In this document: one piece after another, positions 21,936 to 38,942 of the stretch | Layout of the letters: the number at the start of each line of letters is the position of its first letter | Numbering within the stretch: the stretch's first letter is position 1 | NCBI GenBank assembly: GCA_001792535.1 | Contig: MGGS01000018.1 | Coordinates: 3,432 to 67,431, forward strand | Reading direction: 5' to 3' | DNA: 64,000 nucleotides | Origin: Candidatus Woesebacteria bacterium RIFCSPHIGHO2_02_FULL_42_20 | Lineage (GTDB): Bacteria > Patescibacteriota > Microgenomatia > UBA8517 | Translations under genes and position numbers: made by a program | The notes under the pieces: model-generated | Told to the model about the DNA's origin: nothing | The model's input: the letters and a program-made list of their open reading frames with translations, nothing else | Database searches by the model: none

Positions 21936-23621
21936 ATGAATTGGAGATTTTATTGGTCAAACTGGATCTTTGGGGGACTATTTGGGATTATATTGGGTGC
22001 GTTTCTCCCATGGTTCACAATAGGAATACCGTTTATCCTCTCGGAAAATGTTTACGGCCTCCAAGCCGGCGGTCAGTATACACTAGTTTTGGGCTGGATA
22101 GGCATAAGTGCGCTAAGCTTAGTTTTATCACAAAAACTCTCTTTTAAACTTTTTTTCTTTATAGAGTTATTGATAGCCTCCGCAAGTTTACTTTTCTGTC
22201 TTTATATCGCCGGAGTTTTTAACCGTATAGTAGGCTTTGCAAGTATCCTAAGCACACTTCTTGCAGGTTTTGGCGTATCGAGCTTAGCCGGCACAGGTAT
22301 TGGCTTATATATCACAATCTTGGGATCAACCTTTGTGATAATCGGCCTCATCAAGTTCCAGAAAGGCGGAAAAGATAACGAGGAAGAATACGAAATCCGT
22401 CCAGCATTCATAGGATATTTATTAAGATCCTATTCGAGATTGATTTCTATAATACCTCTAAAAATCTACGGATTGGTCTTCCTTCTCATTGTGACATTTG
22501 CTACAGGATCGCTCGTTGTCGATAAACTTGGCATTACTGCCCGAAAAGAAAATAGGGAAGTTAATGAAACAATAAATTTTTCAACTATTAAAGAGAGTTC
22601 TGATTCACTTCCCGCAACTGTTAGTTATATTAAACAAAAAGGTGTACCTGGCACGCGCAAAGTAACTCTCCAAAATATATATGACAAAGAAGGTAATATT
22701 AAAGAGACGCGAACAATTTCTTCCGTAATTACCCAGAACCCAATTGACCAAATCATAGTTGAAGGGACAGTCTCCTCCTATTCCTCGGCGCAGGACCTGA
22801 GGCAAAAGGCACAACAGTTTTACGAAAACTACAAAAACAAAAATTATTCAAAAGTTAGCAACTGGTTTAAGCGGGCAACGGCCGGGAGAGAGTTAGTATA
22901 CAGCGAGGAAAAAATTGAAAAAGCCGTATCCGAATCTAAATTTGAAATAAAAGAGGTTACAGTCGGTATGCCCGAAATAACTTTCCCTTACGCAAAAACA
23001 TATGAAAGTAAGGACGAAATCGTAATTTTAGCCTCTATACCAATCGAACTTAAAAGTGAGAGTGTCTTTTACAAAGAAAAAGTAACCAATTTTAAAGCGA
23101 TCTCCTATTTTGACTTTGAAAACAAAGACTGGTTATTCTCGCCCATCGGACCTGTTTCTGTCACAGACGGCACGGGGGTTAACAAATTCACTGCCACCAT
23201 AGGAGCTGATAAACAGGAAATAGAGGGGGAAATTGGCATCCCAAAAGTTTTTCAATGGATTCCAATCGAAGAAGACTCTTATGAAAAATTCAGGCTGCAT
23301 ATTTATCTTGTCATTAACGGCGGGTTTATGGACGGTAAAAAAATAAGCAGAATAGAATTTCAGGATGTTCGTGATGACTTGGGTTACAGTCACGGTGGTT
23401 ACTACAAAGCAGATCCTTTTTATAAAAGAGGCGACAAGGACTCGGGAATCGGTCCGAATGTATGGGTTTATATAGAAACAACTATCGGAAAAGTCATTGA
23501 AGCCAAAACAATATCAATTAAAGTAACTAGGGTTTTTGAAAAACCGGTTTATTCGTATGAAGATCCAGGAATTGAAGCGTCGCCCAAAGAGTTCACCATT
23601 ACCGGGATTAAGATTAATTAA
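21936..23621 (+). CDS. polytopic membrane protein with extracytoplasmic G5-like domain
   Basis: N-terminal half of TM helices; mid-region TVSYIKQKGVPGTRKVTLQNIYDKEGNIKETRTISSVITQNPIDQIIVEGT is G5-like. Confidence 0.35.
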   Translation: MNWRFYWSNWIFGGLFGIILGAFLPWFTIGIPFILSENVYGLQAGGQYTLVLGWIGISALSLVLSQKLSFKLFFFIELLIASASLLFCLYIAGVFNRIVGFASILSTLLAGFGVSSLAGTGIGLYITILGSTFVIIGLIKFQKGGKDNEEEYEIRPAFIGYLLRSYSRLISIIPLKIYGLVFLLIVTFATGSLVVDKLGITARKENREVNETINFSTIKESSDSLPATVSYIKQKGVPGTRKVTLQNIYDKEGNIKETRTISSVITQNPIDQIIVEGTVSSYSSAQDLRQKAQQFYENYKNKNYSKVSNWFKRATAGRELVYSEEKIEKAVSESKFEIKEVTVGMPEITFPYAKTYESKDEIVILASIPIELKSESVFYKEKVTNFKAISYFDFENKDWLFSPIGPVSVTDGTGVNKFTATIGADKQEIEGEIGIPKVFQWIPIEEDSYEKFRLHIYLVINGGFMDGKKISRIEFQDVRDDLGYSHGGYYKADPFYKRGDKDSGIGPNVWVYIETTIGKVIEAKTISIKVTRVFEKPVYSYEDPGIEASPKEFTITGIKIN

Positions 23622-24555
23622 ATTGTTCCTACGGACCAAGCAAAGAGTCATACCCCATTTATCAAAATCCACGGAATATTCGTTGCATTTAAATTCTTTT
23701 ATTAGCTAGCCAATAGCCAATGTCTTCTTCCGCAAAAAAACTAAGACAAATCCTTCGACCCGCTTTCCCCAACAAGTTCCGGTCATCGCCGCAACTCGCT
23801 TACCAAAGTCGTCTCTTTCCATTATTAAATATTGTATACTACCTCGATGAGTCGCGAAACTCCCTCCGGGGTTCAAAGACCGGTTTTGGGAAAGAAGTAC
23901 TTTAGCTACCATTTTATCCAGTGGAAAATTTCACAAGTGCCAACAAATAATCCCTTTTTGACAGACAGTCTTCGCGAGCCCAGCGTCGGCATACCATGCA
24001 ATGCCACCCGAATACTCGACGACATGCAGTGCGTCAAAAGGCAAGGAACGGCTACGCCTACGAACAATACGATTATTTGGAAAAGAGCTTTTAACCCGCA
24101 AACTGACGGAACAGGAAACTGCGACGGTTGCCCAATGTTAGGAAAGAAGTCCGGCTGTATTATTTACGACGCCTCGTAAAGTTCTTAACTACCAAACGCT
24201 TGCAAACTACGCCTGAAGTTTCTCAGTAGGACCCAGCAAACTGTCGCAGTGAGCAAGTTTTTCCCTCATAACAAATAAATCCTTTCCTTCTTCGCTTAGT
24301 GCCCACTCAGCCTCAGCCACACACTCGGATCCTATATATGCCTCTACCCGGTCTCCCGCTTGCTCAATCGTTCTCATGTTCCTGTCTCTGGCCACTAATG
24401 CAGCACCATAAGCCATCGCATACATACTTCGCATCCTCGCACTGTCAAAATACCTCTCACTCATAGCCCTATTCTACACCTAATTACAAAAATCCTATAG
24501 TATCAATGGGGTTGCAAAGAGCTTTAATTTTTCATATAATTCATCTCATTAAGTT

Positions 24556-24765
24556 ATGAGGTGGCAACCACAACTCAATCAATGTTATTACGACCTTCAA
24601 GAGTTATTGGACAGCTTGTGTGAGGAATCAAGAGAGGCAAGTTTGGAAAACTTTCGAGCCCTAGCTCAAAGGAGGGTGTCAGAGCTATTTCCGCCATTGC
24701 GAACCACTACCAAGACAGAAGTTATTACTGTTCACAAACAAGGCCCAGAAGGTGAGCCAGAATAA
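24556..24765 (+). CDS. hypothetical small protein
   Basis: 69-aa ORF ending directly at the S8 protease start; weak. Confidence 0.2.
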   Translation: MRWQPQLNQCYYDLQELLDSLCEESREASLENFRALAQRRVSELFPPLRTTTKTEVITVHKQGPEGEPE

Positions 24766-26001
24766 ATGAGAAAAATATTAATTTCGGCATCTGCTTTTTT
24801 TCTGATTCTGTTTCTGGCCTCTTTTGATCTTTTCTCCCCGCGCGCGCAGGCCCAAGACGAAAACGGCCACATTCCGGGCCAAGTCCTTGTAAAATTTAAA
24901 GACGGAACCACGAAAGCCAAGAAGGAGAATTTATTAAGAAGTAACCGAGCCCAGGTGGTTGGTAACCTTGAAGCTCTCGGGGTGTCGGTACTGCAAGTCC
25001 CTGGTGTTGCAGAAGAGAGGATAGTTACAGCGCTTTCCAAAAACCCCAACGTCGAATATGCCGAATTAGACTATATCGCCGAGGCTTTCCTTATCCCAAA
25101 CGATACATACTTTAGCCTAAATCAATGGGGTCTTGAAAACACAGGTCAAACTATTAAAGGTGTTGCGGGAAAAATTGACGCCGACGTCAACGGCCCGACT
25201 GCTTGGGAGGTAACCCTTGGAGGAGTGAAAGTTGCAATCCTTGATACCGGCATTGACCAGGACCATGTAGATTTGTCGGCAAAAATTGTTCTGCAGCAAA
25301 ACTTCACAGACTCACCAACAATTAACGACCTTTACGGGCACGGCACCCACGTCGGAGGAATTGTGGCTGCGGTTACCAACAACAACACGGGCGTTGCCGG
25401 AGGTTGCCCTGCTTGCGAACTTATGAACGGAAAAGTCTTAAATGACAAAGGGTCAGGCGCTTACTCATGGATCGCAAACGGCATTACCTGGGCCACAGAC
25501 AACGGAGCCAAGGTAGTCAACATGAGCCTTGGCGGGTCCGCCAGATCCGCTACTTTGGAAAACGCGGTAAATTATGCCTGGAATCGCGGAGTCGTGGTTA
25601 TTGCGGCAGCAGGAAACTCGGCCAATCCATCCAAAACGTATCCTGCAGCCTATACCAATGCAATTGCCGTGGCCGCAACCAACAACAAAGACCAGAAAGC
25701 ATCATTTTCAAGTTACGGAGCAAAGTGGGTCGATGTAGCAGCCCCGGGAGAAAACATCTTTTCTACTTTTCCCAACCACCCTTATAAAATAAATAAATCC
25801 CTGAGTTACGATTTTGGCTCAGGTACATCTATGGCCACGCCGATGACCTCAGCTGTGGCTGCACTCATCTGGTCAACGCCTTACGGAACCTCTGCTTCCA
25901 TGGTCAGAAACAGACTCCAGGCAACCGCTGATAAAATTCCCGGTACCGGGACTTACTGGTCCGCCGGCCGCGTCAATGCCGCCAACGCCATTTCCCCATG
26001 A
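24766..26001 (+). CDS. secreted subtilisin-like serine protease (S8) with N-terminal propeptide
   Basis: Signal peptide; catalytic triad contexts VAILDTGID, HGTHVGGIVAA, GTSMATPMTSAVAAL. SD gaaggtga 13 nt upstream. Confidence 0.9.
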   Translation: MRKILISASAFFLILFLASFDLFSPRAQAQDENGHIPGQVLVKFKDGTTKAKKENLLRSNRAQVVGNLEALGVSVLQVPGVAEERIVTALSKNPNVEYAELDYIAEAFLIPNDTYFSLNQWGLENTGQTIKGVAGKIDADVNGPTAWEVTLGGVKVAILDTGIDQDHVDLSAKIVLQQNFTDSPTINDLYGHGTHVGGIVAAVTNNNTGVAGGCPACELMNGKVLNDKGSGAYSWIANGITWATDNGAKVVNMSLGGSARSATLENAVNYAWNRGVVVIAAAGNSANPSKTYPAAYTNAIAVAATNNKDQKASFSSYGAKWVDVAAPGENIFSTFPNHPYKINKSLSYDFGSGTSMATPMTSAVAALIWSTPYGTSASMVRNRLQATADKIPGTGTYWSAGRVNAANAISP

Positions 26002-26076
26002 AACTAGACTTCCTCTTTTTACCATTTTGTATTACAATCTTTCAAAGATGGGGGGTGAGACAAAAAGTTAGATAAC

Positions 26077-26283
26077 ATGTTAAATACCATACAAACAAAC
26101 GGCGCTAACGGCTATATTGAAAAGTTAATTTTGCAGGAAGGTGAAGACCCAGACACTTCAGTAAGCGACACAGGCGATGCCGGGCAAACACAAGAAGGTG
26201 AAGCAGAGGTGAATGAGACGTTGGGAGGCAATATTATTACTGGGGATGGAGGCGATAGCGGCGATCCTATAAATGCAAAATAA
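26077..26283 (+). CDS. small acidic Gly/Asp/Thr-rich hypothetical peptide
   Basis: 68-aa ORF between the S8 protease and the camelysin-like genes; weak RBS. Confidence 0.2.
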   Translation: MLNTIQTNGANGYIEKLILQEGEDPDTSVSDTGDAGQTQEGEAEVNETLGGNIITGDGGDSGDPINAK

Positions 26284-26427
26284 CAGTAAGAAAATATAGT
26301 CCAAAAAGACATACTTGACAGATGTCTTCCTAAAGCTTATTTTGTTAATTAGAAACTTTACTTCTTAAAGTCCTACCGCAAACGGAAGACTAGGAAGAAA
26401 ACAATCTGCCCCTAAGTATTTTGTGTC

Positions 26428-27768
26428 ATGAAAAGAAGCTTATTAAGTCTTCTGGTAATCGGAGTAGTGGCTGCTGCCGCATTGGGCTTGTCCCGGTCTT
26501 TTTTCTCTGACACCGAAACCTCCTCAGGGAATACTTTCGAAGCCGGCGCTATTGATCTTCTCATTGACAACGTAAGTTATCTAAACGGCAGTTTGAATGA
26601 TGGTACAACCTGGACGCTTGACAACCTCCCCGGTCACTTGTTTTTTAACTTTTTAGACCTTAAACCCGATGACGAAGGAGAGGATACTATTAGTATTCAT
26701 GTCAACAACAACGACGCCTGGGCTTGCATGGAAATGAAGCTCACCGCTAACATCGACAACGGCTGTACGGAGCCGGAAACAGTTGACGGCGATGCCCAAT
26801 GTCCGACTCCCTTTCCATCGCCAACCGCACCGGGAGGAATCGGGGAACTTGGCGACGAAGTCAATTTTGTCTTTTGGGCCGATGACGGGGATAATGTCTT
26901 GGAGGATGATGAATTACCTGTCCTTGCACAAGGCAAGGCAAAAGACGTTCTTAATTCCAAATTTACGCTTGCCGATTCGGCTTCGAGTATTTTTCCTGAA
27001 ATCGTTGACGGGCAACCGCTCGAAGGACTGACTAACTATTACATCGCAAAAGCCTGGTGTTTCGGGACACTCGGGCTTGTCCCCGTTGCCGCAGGCAGTG
27101 GGGTAAATCCGACAGTCGCTTCAGGAATTACCTGCGACGGAACGGCTCTAAACAACATAACCCAAACCGACAAACTGACTGCAGATATCAGTTTTTCGGC
27201 TGTCCAGGCCCGCCACAATCCCGACTTTTTATGCGAACCACAGCCATCTCCCACACCAATCGCCTGTATCGAAACCTATGCGGCAACAGCGCACGAAGTT
27301 AATCAGGGTACTCGCAAAAACGGCACGGCGGTACTAGCCAATCGAAGCGTAGCATCGGCAATGTTCGGCATTCCCCAGACGACTGGAACACCATCGGATG
27401 CCGGTTTCCCAGCCGGGTCATTCTATAGCCTCGGGTTTAATATTGGCAGCTTGGAGGGCGGAAGCGTAGTCCTTGGATTTACCAACCCATTCTACCCAAA
27501 TCCGGCGGGGGCAGACCTGCAAGTTTTTGAAGTCACGGGCGGGACTTACCCCGATGAAAAAGTCAAAGTTGAAGTCGGCACAACTTCAGCCGGTCCCTGG
27601 ACAGTAGTTTCGGCCGCAGCCATCCGCGACGAAGACATTGAAATTCCAGCCGGGTCTTGGCAATTTGTAAGACTGACCGATGTCAGCAATATTGCCCTTT
27701 TTGAATCAACTGCAGATGCTTATGACGTGGATGCCGTCAGGGCTTTGTGCGGAACACCAGGGGATTAA
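26428..27768 (+). CDS. camelysin/TasA-family (peptidase M73-like) secreted protein with SipW-cognate signal peptide
   Basis: Signal peptide, then SRSFFSDTETSSGNTFEAGAIDLLIDN. This matches the CalY/TasA N-terminus (AFFSDxExSxxNTFxAGTLDL). A later LKPDDEGEDTISIHVNNNDAWAC segment is also family-typical. Confidence 0.65.
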   Translation: MKRSLLSLLVIGVVAAAALGLSRSFFSDTETSSGNTFEAGAIDLLIDNVSYLNGSLNDGTTWTLDNLPGHLFFNFLDLKPDDEGEDTISIHVNNNDAWACMEMKLTANIDNGCTEPETVDGDAQCPTPFPSPTAPGGIGELGDEVNFVFWADDGDNVLEDDELPVLAQGKAKDVLNSKFTLADSASSIFPEIVDGQPLEGLTNYYIAKAWCFGTLGLVPVAAGSGVNPTVASGITCDGTALNNITQTDKLTADISFSAVQARHNPDFLCEPQPSPTPIACIETYAATAHEVNQGTRKNGTAVLANRSVASAMFGIPQTTGTPSDAGFPAGSFYSLGFNIGSLEGGSVVLGFTNPFYPNPAGADLQVFEVTGGTYPDEKVKVEVGTTSAGPWTVVSAAAIRDEDIEIPAGSWQFVRLTDVSNIALFESTADAYDVDAVRALCGTPGD

Positions 27769-27869
27769 AAAATGCTAAAAACAAAACAGATAGTTAATAT
27801 TACGATCACGTTATTAAATGCTGCCCTTATTTTCGTAATGGTTAATTTTATAACCACGAAATAAGATAG

Positions 27870-28754
27870 TTGGGTTTTTACCCTAGATTGGTGGTGAGTA
27901 ATATAAGAAAAATTTTACTTAGTTTGCTTTCTATTTCAGCAGTCGCGCTTTTGGCATTCGGCGCCTCGCGAGCTTTCTTTAGCGATGAGGAAACATCAAC
28001 AGGTAATACTTTCGTCGCAGGTGCTATTGATTTACAAATTGATAGCCAATGTCATTATTTCACTGATGAGGATGCTGACGGACAATACCTTGATGTTGGT
28101 TGTTTTACGCCAGCAAGTCCAGAACCAATACCATTCGGTAATTGGCAACTTGGTAATTTGACAACTGAAAAGTTCTTCAATTTTGCTGATGTCAAACCTG
28201 GCGACTGGGGCGAAAATACTATCAGCTTACACGTCTACAACAACGACGCGTGGGCATGTTTAGATATTAGCCCTCTAGCAGATCTGGACAATAGTATCAC
28301 CGAACCTGAGGATGAAGTCGACCTAGCTTTGCCAAGTAACGACGGGACTCCTGATGGAGACTTGGCAGAAAACCTTGAGTTTTTTGCTTGGAGGGACGAT
28401 GGAGACAATGTATTTGAACCACAAGGAAATCCATTGGAAATTCCACTCTTTTCAAACATCAGTGGCCCCGCAAGCGACGTCCTTAGTGGTAGAACTTACA
28501 CCCTCGCGGCACCGGGATCGCCAAATGTTTTTACGGGGGTTGTTGGAGACCCATTAGTTGGTAGTAACAACTACTACATTGGATTAGCATGGTGTGCAGG
28601 TGACTTAAGCGTCGATTTGGGTACTGGAGTAATTACCTGTAATGGATTGACAATGGGTAATATTGCTCAGACAGACTCCGTTTCTGCAGACTTAACATTT
28701 AGGACTGAACAGTCGAGAAACAATCCAGACTTTGACTGTGAAACAGAACTGTAA
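27870..28754 (+). CDS. camelysin/TasA-family secreted protein (paralogue)
   Basis: SRAFFSDEETSTGNTFVAGAIDLQIDS and VKPGDWGENTISLHVYNNDAWAC; paralogous to 26428..27768. Confidence 0.65.
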   Translation: MGFYPRLVVSNIRKILLSLLSISAVALLAFGASRAFFSDEETSTGNTFVAGAIDLQIDSQCHYFTDEDADGQYLDVGCFTPASPEPIPFGNWQLGNLTTEKFFNFADVKPGDWGENTISLHVYNNDAWACLDISPLADLDNSITEPEDEVDLALPSNDGTPDGDLAENLEFFAWRDDGDNVFEPQGNPLEIPLFSNISGPASDVLSGRTYTLAAPGSPNVFTGVVGDPLVGSNNYYIGLAWCAGDLSVDLGTGVITCNGLTMGNIAQTDSVSADLTFRTEQSRNNPDFDCETEL

Positions 28755-28811
28755 GTTTGGAAACTTAGCTCTTGTCCTGCAACCGCGGGACGAGGGCAAG
28801 CCGGAGGATCG

Positions 28812-29963
28812 ATGTCAAATAAGATATCGGGATTCCGGCTTGCCATGGATATAAAAATCTCCAAAGTCATCTATAACACCATCATCTTCCTGATACTCGC
28901 CGCATCGGGCTTTTTGCTTTTTGTTTACTTCGGCAAATTTGATTTTGCCAGCGCTTACATTGTCACCTCGGGATCAATGGCGCCGGCGATTGATACCGGC
29001 AGTATAGTTTTTTCGGTCAAAAGCGACACTTATAAGCCAGGAGATATTATTACATTCACTAACGGCGACAATAAAACCCACATTACTCACCGTATTATTT
29101 ATAAAGATTACCAAAATAACAACTTCATAACTTCAGGCGACGCCAATGAAGACTTGGATCGCTGGACTGTCACCTCCGAAAACGTCAAAGGCAAGGTTTT
29201 ATTCACCATTCCCTACGCGGGGTACCTTGCCAACTTTGCCAAAGAGCCATACGGCTTTATTCTCTTTATCATCGTCCCGGCGACGATAATAATCTACGAG
29301 GAACTTAAACAATTAATCAGTGAATCAATAAAATCAGTAAAGTCATTATTAAGAAAAAAGAGAAGAATATTAACTAATAAGATAAACCTGCTTCCGCAAA
29401 AAAATAATTTCGCTTTGCCCAAAATCGCCATCGCTATCCCGCTTGTGGGCAGCTTCATAGTTTTCGCCTCGCTTTCGGGGTCTTTTTTCTCGGACATTGA
29501 AAACAGCATTGAAAATGTCTTGTCTGCAGCCACTAATTTTGCGACTGCCGGGCCAACGCCCACACCCGCGCCGACAGCGCAAAACCCGATAATCAACGAG
29601 CTCCTACCAAACCCAGATCCGCCATCTGATCCTGAATGGATTGAGCTTTACAATCCAAACAATGCAGGATTTGATCTTACAGGTTGGAATTTGGTCGATG
29701 CCGCCAACAGTTCGCGCCCTCTGCCTTCGCAAATAATTCCGCCGCTTTCATACTTTGTTTATGAAACTCCCGAAGGTTGGTTAAACAATTCATCACCGGG
29801 AGACACTATAACCTTAATTGACCCACTTTCTAACCCCGTCGATCAGTACACATATACAACTGATGTTGCCGACAACAGATCGTTTGCAAGAATACCGGAC
29901 ACCAGCGGAGGCTTTGTACTTTGTCAGATTCCAACCAAAGGCTTGACAAACATCTGTCCATGA
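28812..29963 (+). CDS. ER/archaeal-type signal peptidase I (SipW-like, S26B) fused to a C-terminal lamin-tail domain (LTD)
   Basis: N-terminal TM plus SGSMAPAIDTGSIV (Sec11/SipW SGSMEP box) and a second TM around residue 200. After that TM comes SGSFFSDIENSIEN (SipW-cognate-like motif), a PT linker, then INELLPNPDPPSDPEWIELYNPNNAGFDLTGWNLVD (LTD). Confidence 0.65.
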   Translation: MSNKISGFRLAMDIKISKVIYNTIIFLILAASGFLLFVYFGKFDFASAYIVTSGSMAPAIDTGSIVFSVKSDTYKPGDIITFTNGDNKTHITHRIIYKDYQNNNFITSGDANEDLDRWTVTSENVKGKVLFTIPYAGYLANFAKEPYGFILFIIVPATIIIYEELKQLISESIKSVKSLLRKKRRILTNKINLLPQKNNFALPKIAIAIPLVGSFIVFASLSGSFFSDIENSIENVLSAATNFATAGPTPTPAPTAQNPIINELLPNPDPPSDPEWIELYNPNNAGFDLTGWNLVDAANSSRPLPSQIIPPLSYFVYETPEGWLNNSSPGDTITLIDPLSNPVDQYTYTTDVADNRSFARIPDTSGGFVLCQIPTKGLTNICP

Positions 29964-30955
29964 AAAAAATAAACTTTAAATTAATTTCGACTCTGGTCGG
30001 TGTTGTCATTGTCGCTGCCTTAGCCGGCTACGCCGCTCGGGAGCAGCCGACAACGACGCGCGCTTTCGGCAATTTAGTCGTCACTTTTGAAAGTGACCCA
30101 TTATTTGACTTTGATGACTTTAAGCCCGGCGACTGCACCCAGAAAAGCATTACCGTTACAAATAACCGTGATGAAGAGGTAAGGGTAGCGACAAAGTCTG
30201 CGAATGAGGCGAGTGTTGGAGACTTTGATTTGGCTACACAACTTGATTTCGTAATCAGCGAAAACGGCGTGGCACTTTACGGCGACGCAAGCTCCACGGG
30301 GCCAAAGACTTTAGAGGATTTTTACACAGACAGCGACATTATTGACGGCATAATGCTGACGGATGTCGCAGGCGGCGGAGCCCAAACTGTTTACAAAATA
30401 AGAATTTGCTTTGATATAAATTCCGGCAATGATTATCAGGAAACCAAGACCGTTTTTGATTTAGTTTTTGGCGAAATTTTGGTCCCCGTTAAACTTCCCC
30501 CGGAGTGCCGCCACCTGGAAGGCATTGTCACCGAAAAGATAGAAGGAACAGAAGGTAATGACAACATTCACGGAACAATCGCAAGCGAACTCATAACAGG
30601 TCTGGGGGGTAATGACCGTATTGATCCTTCCAGTGGCCACGACTGCATAGTAGCAGGAGAGGGAAACGACCACGTGGACAGCTCTACAGGCAACGAAGTA
30701 ATACTTGGCGGCGCGGGGAACGACAAGCTTCAAGGAGGAACAGGCAACGACATAATTTATGGCGGAGAAGGAAATGACAATATCGATTTGGGCAGCGGAT
30801 CTGACACGGCATATGGTGAAGCCGGCAATGACCATATTACGGGTGGAAGCGGTGACGATTACCTAGACGGCGGAAGCGACACGGATTCGCTCTTCGGCGG
30901 TTCGGGAACAGATACCTGTGTTTCCGGCGAGAACCTAAACAGTTGTGAGATTTAA
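29960..30955 (+). CDS. secreted TasA-like domain protein with C-terminal RTX-type calcium-binding repeats
   Basis: ATGA start/stop overlap with the upstream gene; signal peptide; FDFDDFKPGDCTQKSITVTNNRDEEV; C-terminal GGxGNDxI nonapeptide repeats. Confidence 0.55.
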   Translation: MKKINFKLISTLVGVVIVAALAGYAAREQPTTTRAFGNLVVTFESDPLFDFDDFKPGDCTQKSITVTNNRDEEVRVATKSANEASVGDFDLATQLDFVISENGVALYGDASSTGPKTLEDFYTDSDIIDGIMLTDVAGGGAQTVYKIRICFDINSGNDYQETKTVFDLVFGEILVPVKLPPECRHLEGIVTEKIEGTEGNDNIHGTIASELITGLGGNDRIDPSSGHDCIVAGEGNDHVDSSTGNEVILGGAGNDKLQGGTGNDIIYGGEGNDNIDLGSGSDTAYGEAGNDHITGGSGDDYLDGGSDTDSLFGGSGTDTCVSGENLNSCEI

Positions 30956-30983
30956 ACTTAGATTGACAAAATCCATCCGTTTG

Positions 30984-31000
30984 TACTAACGTACTAGTAC
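30984..31000. promoter_or_regulatory. palindromic operator-like site (gtactaacgtactagtac) between a ttgaca -35 box (30963-30968) and the yerC-like start
   Basis: Shares the core aacgtactagtac with the 28-bp perfect palindrome downstream at 31584-31611. Confidence 0.4.
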
Positions 31001-31001
31001 A

Positions 31002-31478
31002 GTGATACGTAATCAAAAACAATACTTGGGACTTACTTTCGATCTGATTAATGCTTTCAGTCTGGTCAAAAATCCTCATGATACTGCACTACTTATGCAA
31101 AATTTACTTACAGAATCCGAGATTCGTAACCTTGCCCAAAGGCTGCGTATAGCCAAGTTAATACTGTCTGGAGAAAAGCATAGAGATATCGCAAATAAAA
31201 CCCAATGCAGTATAGCTACTGTCACAAAAGTTAGTATCTGGTTAAAAACCGCCGGAGAAGGACTGGATAAAATTATTGACAAACTTCCCGAAAAATACGG
31301 GTATCCAAAAGATCTTCCGAAAGTTCCGCTTGAATTTCAGTTGCCAAAATTGATCGCTGCCGGTTTTCAATATAGCGCGGCGAAGTTACAAGAAAAGCCC
31401 TCCAAGAAACTATATGAAAATATGCAGACTAAAAGAATCATTGACAAAAATTTAAAAGAATCCTATAAACTCCACTAA
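31002..31478 (+). CDS. TrpR-like DNA-binding protein, YerC/YecD family
   Basis: TESEIRNLAQRLRIAKLILSGEKHRDIANKTQCSIATVTKVS aligns with the YerC HTH region; GTG start. Confidence 0.55.
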   Translation: MIRNQKQYLGLTFDLINAFSLVKNPHDTALLMQNLLTESEIRNLAQRLRIAKLILSGEKHRDIANKTQCSIATVTKVSIWLKTAGEGLDKIIDKLPEKYGYPKDLPKVPLEFQLPKLIAAGFQYSAAKLQEKPSKKLYENMQTKRIIDKNLKESYKLH

Positions 31479-31583
31479 CTTGAGTTTGCAACTCTTCGTT
31501 AGTGATTTTGATCCCCCAAAATGTCATTTTTGATGCAAACTAAAGTAGTTTAGGTATAAAATCAGCTTCAGAAAATAATTTCT

Positions 31584-31611
31584 TGTATTAACGTACTAGT
31601 ACGTTAATACA
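31584..31611. promoter_or_regulatory. 28-bp perfect palindrome tgtattaacgtactagtacgttaataca
   Basis: Perfect dyad with no flanking U-run; lies between convergent gene ends. Confidence 0.4.
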
Positions 31612-31669: not shown

Positions 31670-33094
31670 TTAATTGCCTCCCGGCGCACCAAAAGGCAGA
31701 TTCATATAGTCGTCCCATCCCCCGGAATTGGTAGTCCTGTCCATTAGACGTGCTCCACTACCGTCACGATCAACGGCAGCAACTGTCTGCCTTATCGAGT
31801 CCGGCCCGCAATCTGTTCTCATCCCCATTGTATCCGTACAAAACGAAGTCTCCCGGCCTGAATTTCTCCAGCTCCAATCCGGCTCATGAATAGTCCTCAC
31901 GTCCCCCGTCCAGAAAGCACTTAGGTCACCAAACGGCGCATTACACGGATTTGTACTTAGGAAACAGAACTCCCCAGAAGTGCTCACCAACTGCACAGAG
32001 TCAGGGCAACCTGCGCTTGCCGATCCGTCGCTAACACACAAAGACGCGTCACCGTGAATATGATTCATAGGATTGGTAACCGCAAATGTGGCCGCCCCCG
32101 AATTCCAAACACCGCCGACATTGACCTGAAAAGGCCAAAGTTCATAAGCAGCGTCCTGGTGATCCACTATTACCCTTGCAGGTTCACTCCCGCCGCGGCC
32201 TGTTCCCTTACTTATCACGTTTCCGGTATCCGCCAACGCATAAATATGGGTATCGGCCGACCAAAACTCGAAACTGTGCATCCTCAAAAACAACCTTCCG
32301 CGGCCGCTAGTTCCTTGGTGAACCGCAACAAAATACGTATCGTTTATACCCGGTCCATAATCAAGTTCGCTTTTGCCAAAACCGTTCAGATTGCCTGCAT
32401 AGTGCGTAAAGACTTTAAAACCGGAGTGTGCTTTTAATTCGTCAAACATACCCGCAACTTTGGCGGCGTAACCAAATGGAGGCAGCGGAGCAGTAGGAGA
32501 GAGTGAAACACTTGGTCCACCCGTAGCTCCCGGCGGTGCGTCGCCGTGTTCATGATTGAAAGCACATTTGGCCCCGCCGGGGTTGGTGGAGTCAATGGGT
32601 ACAACAATAGGGTGCCATGTGCGGTACTTAAGGCCATCCGGCCCGCTGACAAAAAACCTGTCGTGCTCGGTTGCGGTACAACCCTTTACAGATTGGCCGC
32701 GGTAAGGCCCATAACTTAGAGTGGCAGTCTTTGCCGGGTCGCCGATGACCAAAGCCGAAATTTCAGGAAAAGTATCACTATTGCTCGCAGAAGTCCCGCC
32801 TGCGGGCGCGGGTAAAGGAGTAGCAGTCGGGCTAGAAGTCGAAACTGGAGTGGCTGTTGCCCGGGGCGTTGGTGTTCCCGTACAGGTTACTTTTAGTTGC
32901 CTCCTGGCGCGACCATCAAGCCATTGGGCTCCGATTCTACCCGTAACACACGTTACTGTTCCAGACTCACCTGGACCCAGCGCAAAAAGCTTGGCAATAC
33001 TCTGAGCGCTGGTATTTAAAACTTTAGTTGAAAAGAGGTAGCTGATTAACCCTAAGACTAGCGAAGAAAAAAGAAGCGCTGAAAGGCGAAACAT
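31670..33094 (-). CDS. secreted hypothetical protein with Pro/Thr-rich linker
   Basis: Signal peptide MFRLSALLFSSLVLGLISYLF; TPTPRATATPVSTSSPTATPLPAP linker; large Gly/Trp-rich domain of unknown function. Confidence 0.4.
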   Translation of the reverse strand: MFRLSALLFSSLVLGLISYLFSTKVLNTSAQSIAKLFALGPGESGTVTCVTGRIGAQWLDGRARRQLKVTCTGTPTPRATATPVSTSSPTATPLPAPAGGTSASNSDTFPEISALVIGDPAKTATLSYGPYRGQSVKGCTATEHDRFFVSGPDGLKYRTWHPIVVPIDSTNPGGAKCAFNHEHGDAPPGATGGPSVSLSPTAPLPPFGYAAKVAGMFDELKAHSGFKVFTHYAGNLNGFGKSELDYGPGINDTYFVAVHQGTSGRGRLFLRMHSFEFWSADTHIYALADTGNVISKGTGRGGSEPARVIVDHQDAAYELWPFQVNVGGVWNSGAATFAVTNPMNHIHGDASLCVSDGSASAGCPDSVQLVSTSGEFCFLSTNPCNAPFGDLSAFWTGDVRTIHEPDWSWRNSGRETSFCTDTMGMRTDCGPDSIRQTVAAVDRDGSGARLMDRTTNSGGWDDYMNLPFGAPGGN

Positions 33095-33140
33095 AAAAAG
33101 GATGTTACCTAAAACACTCTCGCTTGGCAACAGGCAAATC

Positions 33141-33602
33141 CTAATTTTCAACTACCAATGTCCCTGTCATTGAAGGATGCGGTGTGCAGTGGTAAGCGTA
33201 TTCGCTCTCGGCACTTGGTGCCGTAAATATGACCGACTCGCCTTTGTTTAGCAGTTTGGTGCCAAACGAACTGCCATCATTTGCCGTCATTGTGTGCGCC
33301 GCCGTGTCCCGATTAACTACAGTCACTTTTGCCCCGGGTTTAACCTTAAAAGTTTTGGGCGAAAACGCAAAGTTTTTTATTTCAATTGTAATTTCATCAA
33401 CAGCCCCCTGTGAACTTAGATCACTTTCTTTCAGAGTTTCTGTGTTATCTATTGCTATTTTATCTTCTTCCAAACGAGGACCTTCATTAAAGGGAAAATT
33501 TACCGGTGTAGGTACCGGAGTCACATTACCGCCCCGGACTACGACAAACCCAATTACTACTACAATGACTACCACAACACTCAGCAAAAAACCTTTATTC
33601 AT
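33141..33602 (-). CDS. cupredoxin (plastocyanin/amicyanin-like blue copper protein), membrane-anchored
   Basis: N-terminal TM; type-1 copper ligand pattern AAHTM ... YHCTPHPSMTG (His, Cys-x-x-His-x-x-Met). Confidence 0.7.
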   Translation of the reverse strand: MNKGFLLSVVVVIVVVIGFVVVRGGNVTPVPTPVNFPFNEGPRLEEDKIAIDNTETLKESDLSSQGAVDEITIEIKNFAFSPKTFKVKPGAKVTVVNRDTAAHTMTANDGSSFGTKLLNKGESVIFTAPSAESEYAYHCTPHPSMTGTLVVEN

Positions 33603-34153: not shown

Positions 34154-35940
<1,787 letters not shown>

Positions 35941-36789
35941 TTAACTCATTACCTCCATTGCCCGCGTAACGTCGGCGATTTCGTCCGTTATTGCCTGCTG
36001 CCTAACTTCGTTATAGACAAGCGTGAGTGCCTGTGAAAGATTCTGGGCGTTCTCAGACGCGCTTTTCATTGCCAACATCCGGGCCGAATGCTCGGATGCC
36101 TCGGATTCCAGAAACGCTTCCCTAAGCTGCACTTCCAAATAAAAGGGTAACATTGTCTCTAAAACCTGCTTGGCTCCAGGCTCAAAGAGGTAGACCAACG
36201 ACCCGGCATATTGGCTTGCCACATTATCGCGGGATACGGGCAGAAGTTTTTTTAGAGTTGGTTTTTGCATCAAGGCATTTATAAAGTCGGAATAGATAAC
36301 ATAGACTTCGCAAACAGTGTCTTTCCGGAATTCATCCAAGACCAGTGAAATAACTGCAGAGAGGCAAGCTTCTTTAGTCAAATCCGAAAAATCAGCCAAG
36401 AGCTGGCCGTTAAGTATAGCGAAGGATCGGGACTTTTTGCCAACCGTGATAAACAGTCTCTCCTCTTTGGCCGTATCATTCGTATCCGCCAAAACCTTCC
36501 TGAAAAGGTTGGTATTCAAGCTTCCGCAAAGGCCCCTATTCGTCGATACCAAAACATAGAGCTTCTTTTTACCTTTGCCTCTTTCAAAAAGATCAATTTT
36601 TTCCCCCTCGGCTTTTCCTGACAATTGACTGACCAATTCGTAAACTTTCATCGCGTAGGGCTTGCCCGCTTTAGCCTTGCTTTGGGAAGAGCGGACTTTA
36701 GACGCAGAAACCATTTCCAAAGCCTTGGTAATTTTTCTGATATTTTTAACCGACTGTATTCTTTTTCTTATTAACCTTGGGTTTTCCAT
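35941..36789 (-). CDS. atpG: F-type ATP synthase gamma subunit
   Basis: Operon position; gamma-like N-terminal [21 protein letters not shown] and C-terminal helices. Confidence 0.85.
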
Positions 36790-38225
36790 ATTTTTTCTTT
36801 AAATTCGGCAATTGCCTCATCCAAATCTTTTTTAGTTCCGTCGCTAAACTCCCCGGAGTCGGCAATGTCACGCACTATCTTGGATTTCCTGTCGGTAATA
36901 AACTGCATGAACGACTCTTGAAACACAATGATTTTATCTATAGCGATGTCGTCCAAACTGCCGCTTGTGACCGTGTACAAAATGACAACCTGGTGTTCCA
37001 CCGGGATCGGCGCATATTGAGGCTGTTTTAAAATTTCAATTATTCTTTTCCCCCGCTCTATCTTTTCCCGGGTGGAAGGGTCCAGGTCCGACGAGAATTG
37101 CGCAAACGTGGCAAGTTCATAATATTGAGAAAGGTCAAGCCTAAGTTTACCGGCAACTTTCTTCATGGCTGATCTTTGAGCAGCCCCGCCGACCCTGGAC
37201 ACGGAAAGGCCCACATTCAAAGCCGGCCGTACACCCGCAAAGAAAAGGTCATTTTCAAGGTAAATCTGCCCGTCCGTTATCGAAATTACATTTGTGGGAA
37301 TAAATGCAGACACATCTCCGGATTGTGTTTCGATAATTGGAAGCGCCGTCAAAGAGCCGCCGCCCAAAGCCTTTGAAAGTTTGCAAGACCGCTCAAGTAA
37401 GCGGCTGTGAAGGTAAAAAACGTCTCCCGGATATGCCTCACGGCCTGTGGGGCGCCGGAGCAGCAACGACAACTCACGATAAGCCCAAGCGTGCTTTGTC
37501 AAATCGTCATACACCACAAGAACATCATTGCCTTTTTCCATGAAAAATTCCCCCATTGCAGTACCCACATAAGGAGCCAGATAGCGTAGTGAAGCGGGGT
37601 CTGAAGCCGAAGCCAAAACAACAATCGTATTTTTGAGGACTCCAAATTCGTCTAACTTTTCAATGACCGACGCGACTTTTGACCGCTTCTGACCAATTGC
37701 TACATACAGGCAAATTACCCCCGTGGCCTTCTGATTGATTATTGTGTCAATGGCAATTGCAGTTTTACCCACTCCCCGGTCACCAATAATCAGCTCCCTT
37801 TGCCCCCGGCCAATTGGAATCATTGCATCAACGGCTTTTATGCCTGTCTGCAGTGGTGTCGAAACTTTTGACCTGTCCACTATCCCGGCAGCAACCCTTT
37901 CAACAGCCATATATTTTTCAGGTTTGATATCAGCCTTGCCGTCCAACGGGTTGCCGAGAGCGTCGACCACCCTCCCAAGGAAATCTTTACCCGAAGGCAC
38001 AGCATAAAGCTTTCCGGTAGTTGTAACTTTGTCGCCAACATTCAAGGTCGCCCAGTCTCCCAAGATGACAGCCCCTACCCTGCTTTCCTCCAGGTGCATC
38101 GCTAGCCCCACCAGCCCGTTTTCAAACTTCAAAACCTCGCCGTACATGGCGGTTTCGAGCCCGTCCAAAAACGCCACTCCGTCTTTTAGAGAAATTATTT
38201 TCCCTTCGCTTTTTATTTCGACCAT
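36771..38225 (-). CDS. atpA: F-type ATP synthase alpha subunit
   Basis: [22 protein letters not shown]-loop. Confidence 0.95.
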
Positions 38226-38452
38226 ATTTCCTTTTCTATTTTGCCCGACAAGCTCAAGTCCAAGACTATAGAGCCGACTTTGGCCTTAAAACCTCCCAGT
38301 ATCGCCGAGTCCGTCTCCTGGACAAAGGAGGCCTTGCCGGAAACTAAAGACTTGCTTACAAGAAAATCTCCTATTTTTTTTGCCAAAGCACCAAAGTCCC
38401 CATCCCTTAATTTAAGGGGAGTAACTACTATAACCTTTGTTATTTTGTCCAT
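38213..38452 (-). CDS. atpH: F-type ATP synthase delta (OSCP) subunit, C-terminal domain only (79 aa)
   Basis: [29 protein letters not shown] aligns with the delta C-terminus; no room for the N-terminal domain between atpF and atpA. Confidence 0.5.
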
Positions 38453-38453
38453 C

Positions 38454-38942
38454 TTAAGATTTAAGCTCTTTTGCCACCAAGGCTATACTTTTAAGTCGTG
38501 TTTTATCGTCCAATACGCGAGCGAGCACGTGATTAATAACTTCTTGGCTAAGTTTTTTCGAACTTTCTTTGACTTTCCGTTCCACTAATTTTGCCTGACG
38601 GTCTAACTCTCCTTGGCCTTTGGCAATTAGTGCTCTTGCCTTTTTATTACCCTCCTCGGTGGCTTCGTTTTTAATTTTTTGAGCCTCAAGTCTGGCGGCA
38701 TTTACTATGTTATTTGCGTCAGACCTTGCGGCTTTGAGTACTTTCTCTTTTGTGCTTTCAAACACTTCCTGTTTACGGGCCAATTCACCCATTGCGGTTT
38801 CGACACCGGCAAGTTTTTCCTCACGGGACTTCATGGCCTTCAATATGGGCTTGTAGAGAACTTTTTTAAGAATGACAAACAAAATAATAAAGTTAATTAT
38901 CTGCACTCCAAGCAAAAAAGGATCAATACCTAATTTTTCCAT
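38454..38942 (-). CDS. atpF: F-type ATP synthase subunit b
   Basis: Single N-terminal TM then a long charged coiled coil; operon position. Confidence 0.75.
   Translation of the reverse strand: MEKLGIDPFLLGVQIINFIILFVILKKVLYKPILKAMKSREEKLAGVETAMGELARKQEVFESTKEKVLKAARSDANNIVNAARLEAQKIKNEATEEGNKKARALIAKGQGELDRQAKLVERKVKESSKKLSQEVINHVLARVLDDKTRLKSIALVAKELKS

Follow-up and report, generated by a model that had tools for sequence, protein, structure and literature searches.

Which of the genes around this locus belong to one extracellular system, and what might that system build? The window (the whole 64-kb stretch analysed) is part of a groundwater CPR metagenome contig (JGI Ga0209541_10000054) from an uncultured ultra-small CPR/Patescibacteria bacterium. 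The first-pass annotation read the genes as a fibre locus of the TasA/camelysin superfamily that has its own ER-type (SipW-like) signal peptidase and runs from a secreted S8 protease to a TrpR-like regulator. All its ORFs are present on the + strand where it placed them, though it counted six and listed seven (Table 1). Family and fold matches bear out the fibre locus and its peptidase, and the two paralogous SipW-cognate subunits, the lamin-tail domain (LTD) and the TasA-fold protein with RTX repeats are all there. We put at roughly 0.7 the probability that the functional unit is a four-gene operon, g3-g4-g5-g6 (26428-30955), a CPR/Patescibacteria version of a TasA-superfamily fibre system whose fibres would assemble extracellularly by donor-strand exchange.

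Table 1. Features of the locus, in positions of the window; a slash marks a predicted cleavage site or, in site 2, the palindrome centre
Feature	Positions (nt)	Strand	Residues (aa)	Description
g1	24766-26001	+		Secreted S8 subtilase; Peptidase_S8 E 7.7e-55, fervidolysin-type N-propeptide
g2	26077-26283	+	68 in all	Acidic ORF of doubtful status
Promoter-like site	26315-26343	+		TTGACA-17-TATTTT in the 144-nt gap before g3; consensus scan only
g3	26428-27768	+	446 in all	TasA-like fibre subunit paralogue
g3 N-terminal segment	26500-26559	+		SipW-cognate or donor-strand-like, FFSDTETSSGNTFEAGAIDL
g3 core			to ~275	TasA-like, after signal peptide
g3 C-terminal domain	27253-27768	+	~276-446	Unknown fold
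g4	27870-28754	+	294 in all	TasA-like fibre subunit, from TTG 27870
g4 N-terminal segment	27975-28034	+		SipW-cognate or donor-strand-like, FFSDEETSTGNTFVAGAIDL
g5	28812-29963	+		Fusion of an ER/archaeal-type (SipW-like) signal peptidase I with a complete pre-protein
g5 SPase domain	28854-29309	+	15-166	
g5 TM1			16-45	
g5 TM2			143-166	
g5 basic loop			163-207	11 K/R
g5 TM3	~29406-29483		ends 224	Probable signal-peptide role; from hydropathy
g5 motif	29484-29540	+		SGS/FFSDIENSIENVLSAATNF
g5 linker				Pro/Thr, between motif and LTD
g5 LTD	29568-29858	+	253-349	
g6	29960-30955	+		TasA-fold N-domain and RTX nonapeptides
g6 N-domain	29960-30514	+	1 to ~185	TasA fold; no FFSD motif
g6 RTX region	~30545-30955	+		~13 nonapeptides
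g6 C-terminus				Conserved ...DTC...SCEI
Operator-like site 1	30981-31008			28 nt, TTGTACTAACGTACTAGTACAGTGATAC; overlaps g7 GTG start
g7	31002-31478	+		TrpR/YerC-like HTH protein
Operator-like site 2	31584-31611			Perfect 28-bp palindrome TGTATTAACGTACT/AGTACGTTAATACA, between convergent g7 and g8

Extent of the operon

Gene order was compared over 72 evaluable CPR loci, or 66 for the g6-like count. The peptidase lies downstream of one to four TasA-like genes in 71/72 (within 400 nt in 68), and a gene resembling the g6 N-domain follows in 25/66, a figure that may be low since it comes from single-sequence phmmer, which may under-detect. The order TasA-like (one to four copies), peptidase, optional LTD protein, g6-like is conserved across many CPR lineages. 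Conservation does not extend to the flanks: an S8 gene is adjacent in 0/72 loci and TrpR occurs near only one of the 72, distantly. The small ORF g2, although called as a gene by JGI, has no family match, and none of the related loci searched contains a homologue. Contrary to the first-pass annotation, g1 and g2 are thus neighbours and not conserved parts of the fibre system. g1 has an ordinary Sec-type signal and its own promoter-like site (24512-24540, consensus scan), and the similar site before g3 offers weak evidence for the start of a g3-g6 transcription unit.

A single system comprising all seven ORFs, in which the S8 protease processes or reshapes the fibre and the TrpR-like protein stands in for SinR, would suit the shared orientation and short gaps of the genes, the secretion of S8, the position of operator-like site 1 directly after g6, and the transcription factors sometimes found in tafi and AbpX loci. 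It is nevertheless improbable given the counts above and the separate promoter-like sites of g1 and g3. Moreover, the 64-kb window holds no operator-like site upstream of either g1 or g3, and the closest relative found (locus L089, g6 75% identical) has neither TrpR nor palindromes after g6.

TasA-like subunits

g3 and g4 are Sec-exported paralogues (44% identity over ~290 aa, E 3e-65) with SipW-cognate signal peptides. Their motifs, LSRSFFSDTETSSGNTFEAGAIDL and ASRAFFSDEETSTGNTFVAGAIDL, are two of only three SipW-cognate motifs in the 64-kb window, the third lying inside g5. Cleavage probably occurs after SRS/SRA in g3/g4, a position that fits both the -3/-1 rule and alignment to TasA (A27/A28-F-N-D), so the mature ends would begin FFSD; the mature N-terminus proposed at first pass, SRSFFSD, is corrected to this inferred start. 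JGI calls g4 from GTG 27891, giving 287 aa.

The Peptidase_M73 model (PF12389), to which the subunits had been expected to match, scores g3, g4 and g6 all under the gathering threshold and mainly over the signal region; the TasA assignment is therefore based on the fold and the family context instead of this HMM. g4 has 2748 homologues, nearly all from Patescibacteria MAGs, and NCBI names some of its relatives 'TasA family protein' or 'SipW-dependent-type signal peptide-containing protein'. A Foldseek search with the g4 model agrees with the suggested TasA jellyroll, returning the TasA fibre (8aur_A) as top and only significant PDB match (E 8e-5). g4 and the g6 N-domain share the TasA fold, at only ~13-16% identity to TasA in structural alignments. 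Conservation within the family peaks at the FFSD-type N-terminal motif, which is nonetheless disordered in the monomer model (pLDDT <50). Many CPR loci have TasA-like paralogues that carry the C-terminal domain of g3; a Pfam search with it gave no match, and by hhalign it is not LTD-like.

Could g3, g4 and g6 instead be non-polymerising surface proteins (adhesins, an S-layer-like coat or 'camelysin' proteases) that have only the TasA fold and a dedicated peptidase in common with fibres? The original annotation of the family was metallopeptidase M73, its paralogues carry varied adhesin-like C-terminal domains (vWA, SpaA_2, the g3 C-terminal domain), and fibres in CPR are so far a prediction from genes. 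However, the structures that match most closely all belong to donor-strand fibres (TasA, threads, AbpA, CanX), the N-terminal strand is the best conserved part yet unpacked in the monomer model, and accessory proteins that appear to be donor-only and acceptor-only (below) would suit a polar fibre. We consider such a coat or adhesin role very unlikely.

The signal peptidase and its fused pre-protein

Judged from its sequence, g5 is an ER/archaeal-type signal peptidase with Ser/His/Asp intact. It scores 104.8 bits against TIGR02228 (signal peptidase I; cutoff 51.85), contains the SGSMAP box reported at first pass, and aligns SGSMAPA, ITHRI and GDAN to SGSMEPA, IVHRV and GDNN of human SEC11C (7p2q, E 3.7e-7), the catalytic Ser/His/Asp positions being conserved in alignment to SEC11A/C. 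With 93 against a cutoff of 190 for NF046067, it fails NCBI's equivalog model of Bacillus SipW. Hydropathy reveals three hydrophobic segments, and the C-terminal part matches LTD at 57.4 bits.

We propose that this C-terminal half is itself a substrate, in which a positively charged cytoplasmic loop, TM3 as signal peptide, SGS/FFSDIENS..., a Pro/Thr linker and the lamin-tail domain would follow one another as in a pre-protein. Cleavage at the predicted internal site, inferred by analogy and in cis or trans, would free a protein that has a donor strand and lacks an acceptor. The cleavage contexts are alike, SGS/FFSD in g5 and SRS/FFSD and SRA/FFSD in the g3/g4 substrates. Of 71 CPR loci with a downstream peptidase, 33 have a peptidase C-terminal extension of >100 aa; a SipW-like motif is found in 24 of these 33 and an LTD in 12. 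A separate LTD gene follows in nine CPR loci, and most free-standing LTD proteins start with a SipW-type signal of their own. The L089 peptidase keeps the motif (ITGS/FFSDWEKSLGNIFSAATSF) and lacks the LTD; the strand itself is therefore the conserved element.

The extension might, alternatively, stay uncleaved as a permanent extracytoplasmic domain of the peptidase, serving for instance in wall positioning or substrate binding, with the FFSD-like stretch a relic of gene fusion. Dedicated peptidases with several domains and TM helices do occur, such as TafD, in which four TM helices are combined with a second outside domain (PMC11821415), and the AbpX-associated enzyme, with ten TM helices. 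In addition, 9 of the 33 extended CPR peptidases lack a match to the motif regex used. Yet the motif after TM3 is conserved in the other 24 and agrees with the cleavage context of the substrates, the strand outlasts the LTD in L089, and most free-standing LTD genes bear the same signal. A permanent domain thus seems unlikely, if less so than the alternatives above, and we favour release of the LTD protein.

The RTX protein

The start of g6 (ATG 29960) overlaps the g5 stop codon, the ATGA seen at first pass, and couples the two genes. Its repeats give seven HemolysinCabind matches (PF00353, 125 bits, E 6.8e-37), in line with the RTX assignment. They resemble the tandem GGxGxD nonapeptides of Type I secretion RTX proteins, from which g6 differs in its N-terminal signal peptide, its place in a Sec/SipW operon and the attachment of the repeats as a C-terminal module to a TasA-fold domain; no T1SS gene appears in the locus annotations examined. 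An hhalign comparison of the g6 N-domain family with the g4 family aligned only 21 columns, at 72% probability. Among the best 150 representatives of the g6 N-domain family, 60 C-termini carry RTX, while 32 have a TM helix followed by a basic tail, in some cases with LAGTG/LADTG-like motifs. Sortase genes adjoin the operon in two loci (L005 and L007).

g6 has the TasA fold without the donor-strand motif, so it would be an acceptor-only terminal subunit, an anchor at the cell-proximal end. Where relatives have a TM helix or a sortase-like sorting signal, g6 would present a Ca2+-binding RTX beta-roll. An RTX module does not readily suggest an anchor, and g6 might therefore be an adhesin at the distal end.

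The TrpR-like gene and its palindromes

g7 matches Trp_repressor (PF01371) at 53.6 bits, as foreseen at first pass, and is thereby like E. coli TrpR and Firmicute YerC-YecD; its PDB matches are the YerC-like 3frw, 3g1c and 3kor and E. coli TrpR. It departs from the TrpR/YerC-YecD family in falling under the TIGR01321 and TIGR02531 cut-offs and in a C-terminal extension of ~60 aa. Its start is either GTG 31002 or TTG 31026. No trp genes are among the annotated genes around the locus.

The operator-like palindrome reported before the regulator start is present as site 1, 18 nt downstream of a perfect TTGACA (30963-30968) and overlapping a promoter-like element, TTGACA-18-TAACGT. Sites 1 and 2 agree at 24/28 positions and are the only two such sites in 64 kb (expected 0.02), where the core GTACTAGTAC also occurs just twice. 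The site 2 core ACTAGTACG recurs unchanged within the E. coli trp operator CGAACTAGTTAACTAGTACGCA (PMC11748629), and the core GTACTAGTACG of the palindromes matches the CTAG-centred arm of that operator. g7 probably represses its own transcription.

It is possible, though rather doubtful, that these palindromes are not operators but terminators, REP-like elements or the boundaries of a mobile cassette. Site 2 lies between convergent genes, and its RNA would form a -15.8 kcal/mol hairpin (z -3.2); a single gene, g7, stands between the two copies, and the nearest relative lacks this cassette. On the other hand, a U-tract is missing from the + strand, site 1 does not exceed shuffled sequence in folding (z -1.1) and overlaps both the g7 start and a promoter-like element, and the resemblance to the trp operator is found beside a TrpR-family gene. 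Even with the operator reading preferred, the palindromes occur only around g7, and there is therefore no sign that g7 controls the fibre genes. The regulator, which the first-pass annotation had made part of the locus, is lineage-specific at this position.

Comparison with known fibre systems

Homologues of PF12389 in Patescibacteria were noted in 2022 (Wang et al., PMC9245690), and NCBI names exist, so the family was not new when the first-pass annotation called the system possibly undescribed; for the CPR operon architecture itself we found no descriptive paper, and to that extent the suggestion stands. Archaeal TasA-superfamily fibres (AbpA bundling pili, 7UEG; Saci_0406 threads, 7PNB; CanA/CanX cannulae; AbpX) are far more divergent in sequence, and the FFSD motif, RTX modules and LTDs are absent from all of them.

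The B. subtilis tapA-sipW-tasA operon (TasA fibres 8AUR, TapA nucleator, SipW peptidase) shares TasA-fold secreted subunits with a SipW-cognate signal and donor-strand region, a dedicated ER-type peptidase, and an accessory protein joining a TasA-like N-terminal strand to another beta-sandwich, TapA there and the g5 LTD module here. The arrangement differs, as first proposed. Bacillus tapA and sipW are separate genes, co-expressed with overlapping stop and start codons (PMC10151520), whereas the equivalent parts are fused in g5, a nucleator-like module on a peptidase. In the CPR operon the major subunits come first, as two to four paralogues with extra domains; an additional TasA-fold protein, g6, has RTX repeats and no donor strand; and there is no SinR.

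Analogy with TapA/TasA and with the haloarchaeal tafi model of tip, shaft, anchor and dedicated peptidase (PMC11821415) suggests how the parts may work together. In TasA, residues 28-38 make up the donor strand, and the first strand comes from TapA (PMC9674648, PMC10151520). Here the g5 peptidase would cut the subunits after SRS/SRA, g3 and g4 would form the shaft, and the freed lamin-tail protein, made one-for-one with the peptidase, would serve as nucleator or tip in the manner of TapA or TafC; polymerisation and subunit order would follow these models as well. The proposed blueprint is that of tafi (TafC tip, TafE adapter, TafA shaft, TafF anchor, TafD peptidase; PMC11821415): a donor strand with an unrelated lectin-like domain on the tip or nucleator, TasA-superfamily shaft subunits, an anchor that takes up a strand with its N-domain and is held at the cell by its C-terminus, and a multi-TM dedicated signal peptidase in the cluster. 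Tafi use the Tat pathway, a laminin-G tip domain and an anchor ending in a TM helix; the CPR version would realise the same plan with Sec-type, SipW-cognate signals, an LTD and RTX repeats, with peptidase and tip as one polypeptide, and in a bacterium.

Extent of the conserved unit

Seven co-oriented ORFs are listed from 24766 to 31478 (see table), and the first-pass annotation took them as one fibre locus with its own accessory protease and regulator. We fetched 80 genome loci with a profile of the g4 family, plus a handful by exact protein look-up, and annotated them with the proteins of the window; 72 were evaluable, spanning Chisholm-, Levy-, Woese-, Beckwith-, Kaiser-, Nomura-, Moran-, Giovannoni-, Taylor- and Yonathbacteria, WWE3, CPR3 and Paceibacteria. 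The peptidase gene lies downstream of one to four TasA-like genes in 71 of these (within 400 nt in 68), and a gene of the type of the g6 N-terminal domain (g6N) follows farther downstream in 25 of 66 loci, 12 of them with RTX repeats. Conservation of gene order thus extends to this core but not to the flanks, since an S8 gene is nearby in 0 of 72 loci, which rejects the subtilase as a conserved accessory protease by synteny, and a TrpR gene in one, where it is distant. The functional unit is g3-g6 and not the seven ORFs. A consensus scan places separate promoter-like elements before g1 and before g3, though as evidence these are weak.

Features of the locus and its surroundings (window positions)
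Feature	Position	Strand	Description
G5-domain gene	21936-23621	+	561-aa protein, with a G5 domain; many hydrophobic segments in the N-terminal part
Gap	23622-24765		about 1.1 kb between G5-domain gene and g1; doubtful small ORFs only
ORF	24207-24464	-	doubtful, 85 aa
Promoter-like site	24512-24540		ahead of g1; good site, TTGCAA-17-TATAAT
ORF	24556-24765	+	doubtful, 69 aa; abuts the g1 ATG as TAAATG
g1	24766-26001	+	S8 subtilase with fervidolysin-type propeptide; PF00082 7.7e-55, 186.7 bits, above threshold
g2	26077-26283	+	68 aa, acidic; no match in Pfam or NCBIfam
Promoter-like element	26315-26343		before g3
g3	26428-27768	+	TasA-like paralogue
g4	27870-28754	+	TasA-like paralogue
g5	28812-29963	+	signal peptidase with lamin tail domain (LTD)
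g6	29960-30955	+	TasA-fold N-domain and RTX repeats; ATG overlaps the g5 stop as ATGA
g6 terminus	~30899-30955	+	RTX-type, G-x-SG-x-DTC-...-SCE(L/I), two Cys; not a known T1SS signal
Site 1	30981-31008		TTGTACTAACGTACTAGTACAGTGATAC; overlaps the g7 GTG start, downstream of a perfect TTGACA (30963-30968)
g7	31002-31478	+	TrpR/YerC-like
Site 2	31583-31610		TTGTATTAACGTACTAGTACGTTAATAC; falls within a perfect 28-bp palindrome (31584-31611)
g8	31670-33151	-	493 aa, predicted secreted or membrane-anchored; Pro/Thr-rich linker, several His-containing motifs
Cupredoxin gene	33141-33602	-	its end overlaps the g8 start by 11 nt
ATP synthase operon	34154-38942	-	complete F-type (epsilon, beta, gamma, alpha, delta, b) plus CBS-domain gene

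The window matches the 180-kb JGI metagenome contig Ga0209541_10000054. The subtilase reached no specific equivalog model in NCBIfam. Scanning the window against Rfam and for tRNAs gave zero matches, so the gap at 23.7-24.7 kb holds no RNA element. Farther upstream of the G5-domain gene lies a gene for a DUF2207 membrane protein, and these two are further cell-envelope genes close to the fibre operon. The ATP synthase operon just downstream belongs to ordinary chromosome and is no sign of a mobile element. The convergent neighbour g8 has no relative in Pfam, NCBIfam or PDB; its overlap with the cupredoxin gene suggests a two-gene operon, possibly copper-related. In L089, the nearest relative of the locus that was found, the cupredoxin is present and g8 absent.

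Nine of the fetched loci (L013, L018, L019, L022, L025, L046, L064, L081 and L083) are typical CPR-type TasA/SipW operons in TPA_asm MAG records, whose titles ('uncultured Gammaproteobacteria', 'Bdellovibrionales', 'Pseudomonadales') are probably taxonomic mislabels.

TasA-like subunits

The paralogues g3 and g4 share 44% identity over about 290 aa (E 3e-65), and g4 has 2748 homologues, nearly all in Patescibacteria MAGs, the nearest named one being from Candidatus Chisholmbacteria (55% identity). The names 'TasA family protein' and 'SipW-dependent-type signal peptide-containing protein' are already in use for some relatives, and in precomputed annotation many close homologues carry PF12389 (Peptidase_M73). 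The proteins of the locus themselves score below the 22.5-bit gathering threshold of that family (g3 13.6, g4 21.2 and g6 18.6-20.0 bits), matching mainly in the signal and the KPGD region. The SipW-cognate signal model TIGR04088 reports g4 (20.9 bits against a cut-off of 19) but neither g3 nor the internal site of g5, where the same motif is found by regular expression and alignment.

Because the g4 family profile reached no solved structure (zero PDB matches at E<=1 by sequence search), we compared folds. An AlphaFold2 model of g4 built from 68 sequences (pLDDT 81.3) has a TasA-type jelly-roll/beta-sandwich fold, and the Bacillus TasA fibre (8AUR chain A) was its only PDB match below 1e-3 in Foldseek (E 8e-5, probability 1.00). 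For g6N, alignment of the family with that of g4 by hhalign was confined to the F-x-F-x-D-x-KPGD motif (21 columns, 72% probability), which was not enough, and structure prediction was therefore used here also; 11 of 28 g6N relatives match PF12389 individually (best E 3.7e-6). On the evidence of the modelled folds, g4 and the g6 N-domain are members of the TasA superfamily, with none reaching the Pfam threshold, and g3, likewise below it, is a member through its homology to g4. The camelysin/TasA assignment of the first-pass annotation thus stands by fold, though not by Pfam score, and its SipW-cognate signal stands by HMM for g4 and by motif for g3.

The FFSD-E-S--N-F-AG-ID segment is the best-conserved stretch of the g4 family, invariant in the alignment, yet the monomer model leaves it unpacked (pLDDT <50), a combination that would fit an intermolecular role. 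Four Cys are also invariant in the alignment (C130, C242, C257 and C290 in g4 numbering), which suggests that the TasA-like core of CPR has two conserved disulfides. The recurrent C-terminal domain of g3 (aa 276-446) had no Pfam match even at E<=10; that it is LTD-like was rejected by hhalign (probability 0.1%).

A signal peptidase fused to a putative substrate

That g5 is an ER-type signal peptidase is borne out by TIGR02228 (104.8 bits, cut-off 51.85) and by alignment of its N-terminal 200 aa with human SEC11C and SEC11A (7P2Q, 3.7e-7), in which its SGSMAPA, ITHRI and GDAN lie opposite SGSMEPA, IVHRV and GDNN. These are the segments in which we take the catalytic Ser, His and Asp of Sec11/SipW-type peptidases to reside. 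Judged by these motifs, g5 has the Ser/His/Asp constellation of ER/archaeal/SipW-type enzymes, not Ser/Lys. It is related to Bacillus SipW but, at 93.4 bits against a cut-off of 190 (NF046067), falls short of the equivalog, that is same-function, level.

The LTD also proved genuine (PF00932, aa 253-349, 57.4 bits against 34.3). Hydropathy gives three hydrophobic segments (aa 16-45, 143-166 and 199-227), and the loop at aa 163-207 contains 11 K/R against 3 D/E. The predicted layout is a first helix running from inside to outside, an external catalytic domain, a second helix returning, the basic loop inside, and a third helix running outwards. After this third helix the chain reads ...ASLSGS/FFSDIENSIENVLSAATNF (the slash marks the putative cleavage point), followed by a Pro/Thr linker and the LTD. 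In this layout the C-terminal half of g5 has all three regions of a signal peptide (n, h and c). The cleavage context is the same as in g3 (SRS/FFSD) and g4 (SRA/FFSD), and the motif occurs only three times in the 64-kb window: in g3, in g4 and inside g5.

That the fusion arose in assembly can be dismissed, because extensions recur on the peptidases of related loci: 33 of 71 downstream peptidases are extended by more than 100 aa, and of these 33, 24 have the motif and 12 an LTD. In some the extension is a whole TasA-like domain, and in nine loci the LTD is a separate downstream gene, most examples of which start with a SipW-type signal of their own (e.g. ...ISYFSDTETSVDNFMKAGLLDF). The L089 peptidase retains ITGS/FFSDWEKSLGNIFSAATSF and the Pro/Thr tail with no LTD, in a locus whose g6 is 75% identical to ours; the conserved element is therefore the strand. 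In Paceibacteria-type loci (L015, L016, L017, L020, L021, L035, L038, L073 and L074) the peptidase ORFs are 480-560 aa long, with a longer module that starts with a SipW-type motif ending ...LDF (e.g. SYFNDIESS..N.L.A..LDF) and resembles an entire TasA-like subunit; the fusion of peptidase and substrate thus has several forms.

The RTX-ended protein and its family

The RTX member and its ATGA overlap with g5 were confirmed, with HemolysinCabind (PF00353) matching g6 at 125.4 bits (6.8e-37, seven matched stretches, above threshold) and about 13 GxxGxD units counted. A type I secreted RTX toxin or protease was considered for g6 and rejected: it has an N-terminal hydrophobic signal (aa 3-27), lies far below the cut-offs of all RTX-toxin and serralysin models in NCBIfam, and has no T1SS gene among the genes annotated around the locus.

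A word-indexed search with g6N found three matches, and 18 with a profile, where an exhaustive HMMER search found 668 representative clusters, in all of which the domain is N-terminal. The KPGD and AGNEYQ..FDL core motifs are present in the family and the FFSD motif is absent. What follows the domain varies. Among the top 150 representatives, 60 have C-terminal RTX repeats and a conserved ...DTC...SCE(L/I) terminus, and 32 a hydrophobic helix and basic tail, some with LAGTG, LADTG or LSDTG-like motifs ahead; examples of the latter are from Woesebacteria, Microbacterium and Leifsonia. Sortase genes immediately follow the g6-like gene in L005 (11629-12195, minus strand) and L007 (11703-12275, minus strand). 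Together with those motifs, the helix and the basic tail, they hint that a sortase may anchor the fibre base in some lineages.

The TrpR-like gene and its palindromes

PF01371 places g7 in the Trp_repressor family (53.6 bits against 27), as proposed, but the more specific models are not reached (TIGR02531 37.9 against 42.2; TIGR01321 36.7 against 67.25). Its PDB matches are the YerC-like 'putative Trp repressor' structures 3frw, 3g1c and 3kor (2e-7 to 3e-6), with E. coli TrpR at 1e-3, and it would be a TrpR/YerC family member belonging to neither equivalog.

The palindromes on either side of g7 share a core, ACTAGTACG, that is found unchanged within the E. coli trp operator, given as CGAACTAGTTAACTAGTACGCA in PMC11748629. 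The first-pass annotation had made g7 the regulator of the fibre genes; we reject control through the palindrome because no further copy, with up to three mismatches, is found upstream of g1 or g3 or elsewhere in the window. In L089, g7 is absent from this position. The most economical reading of the flanking sites is autoregulation of g7. As RNA, site 1 is no more stable than its shuffled versions; site 2 forms a stable hairpin (-15.8 kcal/mol, z -3.2), with no U-tract on the plus strand, and may instead be a terminator or a cassette boundary. In L006 (12220-13519) an ECF sigma factor comes after the g6-like gene, together with a DUF5667 protein that is a putative anti-sigma factor; the regulator joined to the common core therefore differs between lineages.

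A possible assembly scheme

The donor strand of B. subtilis TasA is residues 28-38, which complete the next subunit, and TapA, whose N-terminus resembles this strand, supplies the first one (PMC9674648, PMC10151520). For the haloarchaeal tafi it has been proposed that TafC, with a donor strand and a laminin-G domain, is the tip, that TafE and TafA form the shaft, that TafD is a dedicated peptidase, and that TafF, with an acceptor domain and a TM helix, is the anchor (PMC11821415). The g3-g6 operon maps one-to-one onto this scheme. We would assign the C-terminal module of g5 (donor strand and LTD, no acceptor) to the nucleator or tip, g3 and g4 to the shaft, where they would polymerise by N-terminal donor-strand exchange, and g6 (acceptor fold, no donor motif, C-terminal holding module) to the terminator or anchor. 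By analogy with these systems we infer the cleavage sites, polymerisation and subunit order; the RTX module may either anchor or adhere.

We put at roughly one in four the probability that CPR bacteria make polar, donor-strand-exchanged TasA-type fibres whose seed is self-cleaved from the C-terminal half of the peptidase, with a g6-type protein terminating them and holding them at the cell. The seed would then be a donor strand with a lamin-tail or other tip domain, each peptidase molecule would launch one fibre, and a TasA-fold protein lacking the donor strand, in RTX, TM or sortase variants, would hold it at the cell.

Both the TasA superfamily and the logic of its operons are already established (PMC9245690, PMC9674648, PMC11821415, bioRxiv 10.64898/2026.01.04.697558), and in Wang et al. 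2022 the phyla with homologues of PF12389 include Patescibacteria (PMC9245690). The available text of the 2026 superfamily survey, which queried RefSeq, assigns TasA homologues among bacteria to Bacillota and Actinomycetota alone and leaves Patescibacteria unmentioned (bioRxiv 10.64898/2026.01.04.697558). Our literature searches on a CPR operon, SipW in CPR and peptidase-LTD fusions found nothing relevant. The suggestion that the system is possibly undescribed therefore holds for the CPR operon, on which we found no paper, but not for the family, given the homologues of Wang et al. and the relatives already named 'TasA family protein'. What is new here is the clade-wide CPR architecture, the fusion of peptidase and putative nucleator, and the acceptor subunit ending in RTX, TM or sortase modules; it is not a categorically new system.

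The peptidase-substrate fusion offers a compact, testable case of an enzyme that shares one chain with its own substrate, and the adjacent protease and regulator are not to be read into the fibre system. CPR bacteria, or Patescibacteria, are a large and mostly uncultured part of bacterial diversity, generally considered likely episymbionts, with type IV pili as their best-known surface appendage. The locus and the 72 evaluable related loci reveal a second candidate for an appendage system, conserved in many CPR lineages and belonging to a superfamily known from Bacillus biofilms and archaeal pili. If such fibres attach ultra-small episymbionts to hosts or biofilms, they would be a widespread, unstudied CPR surface organelle distinct from type IV pili.
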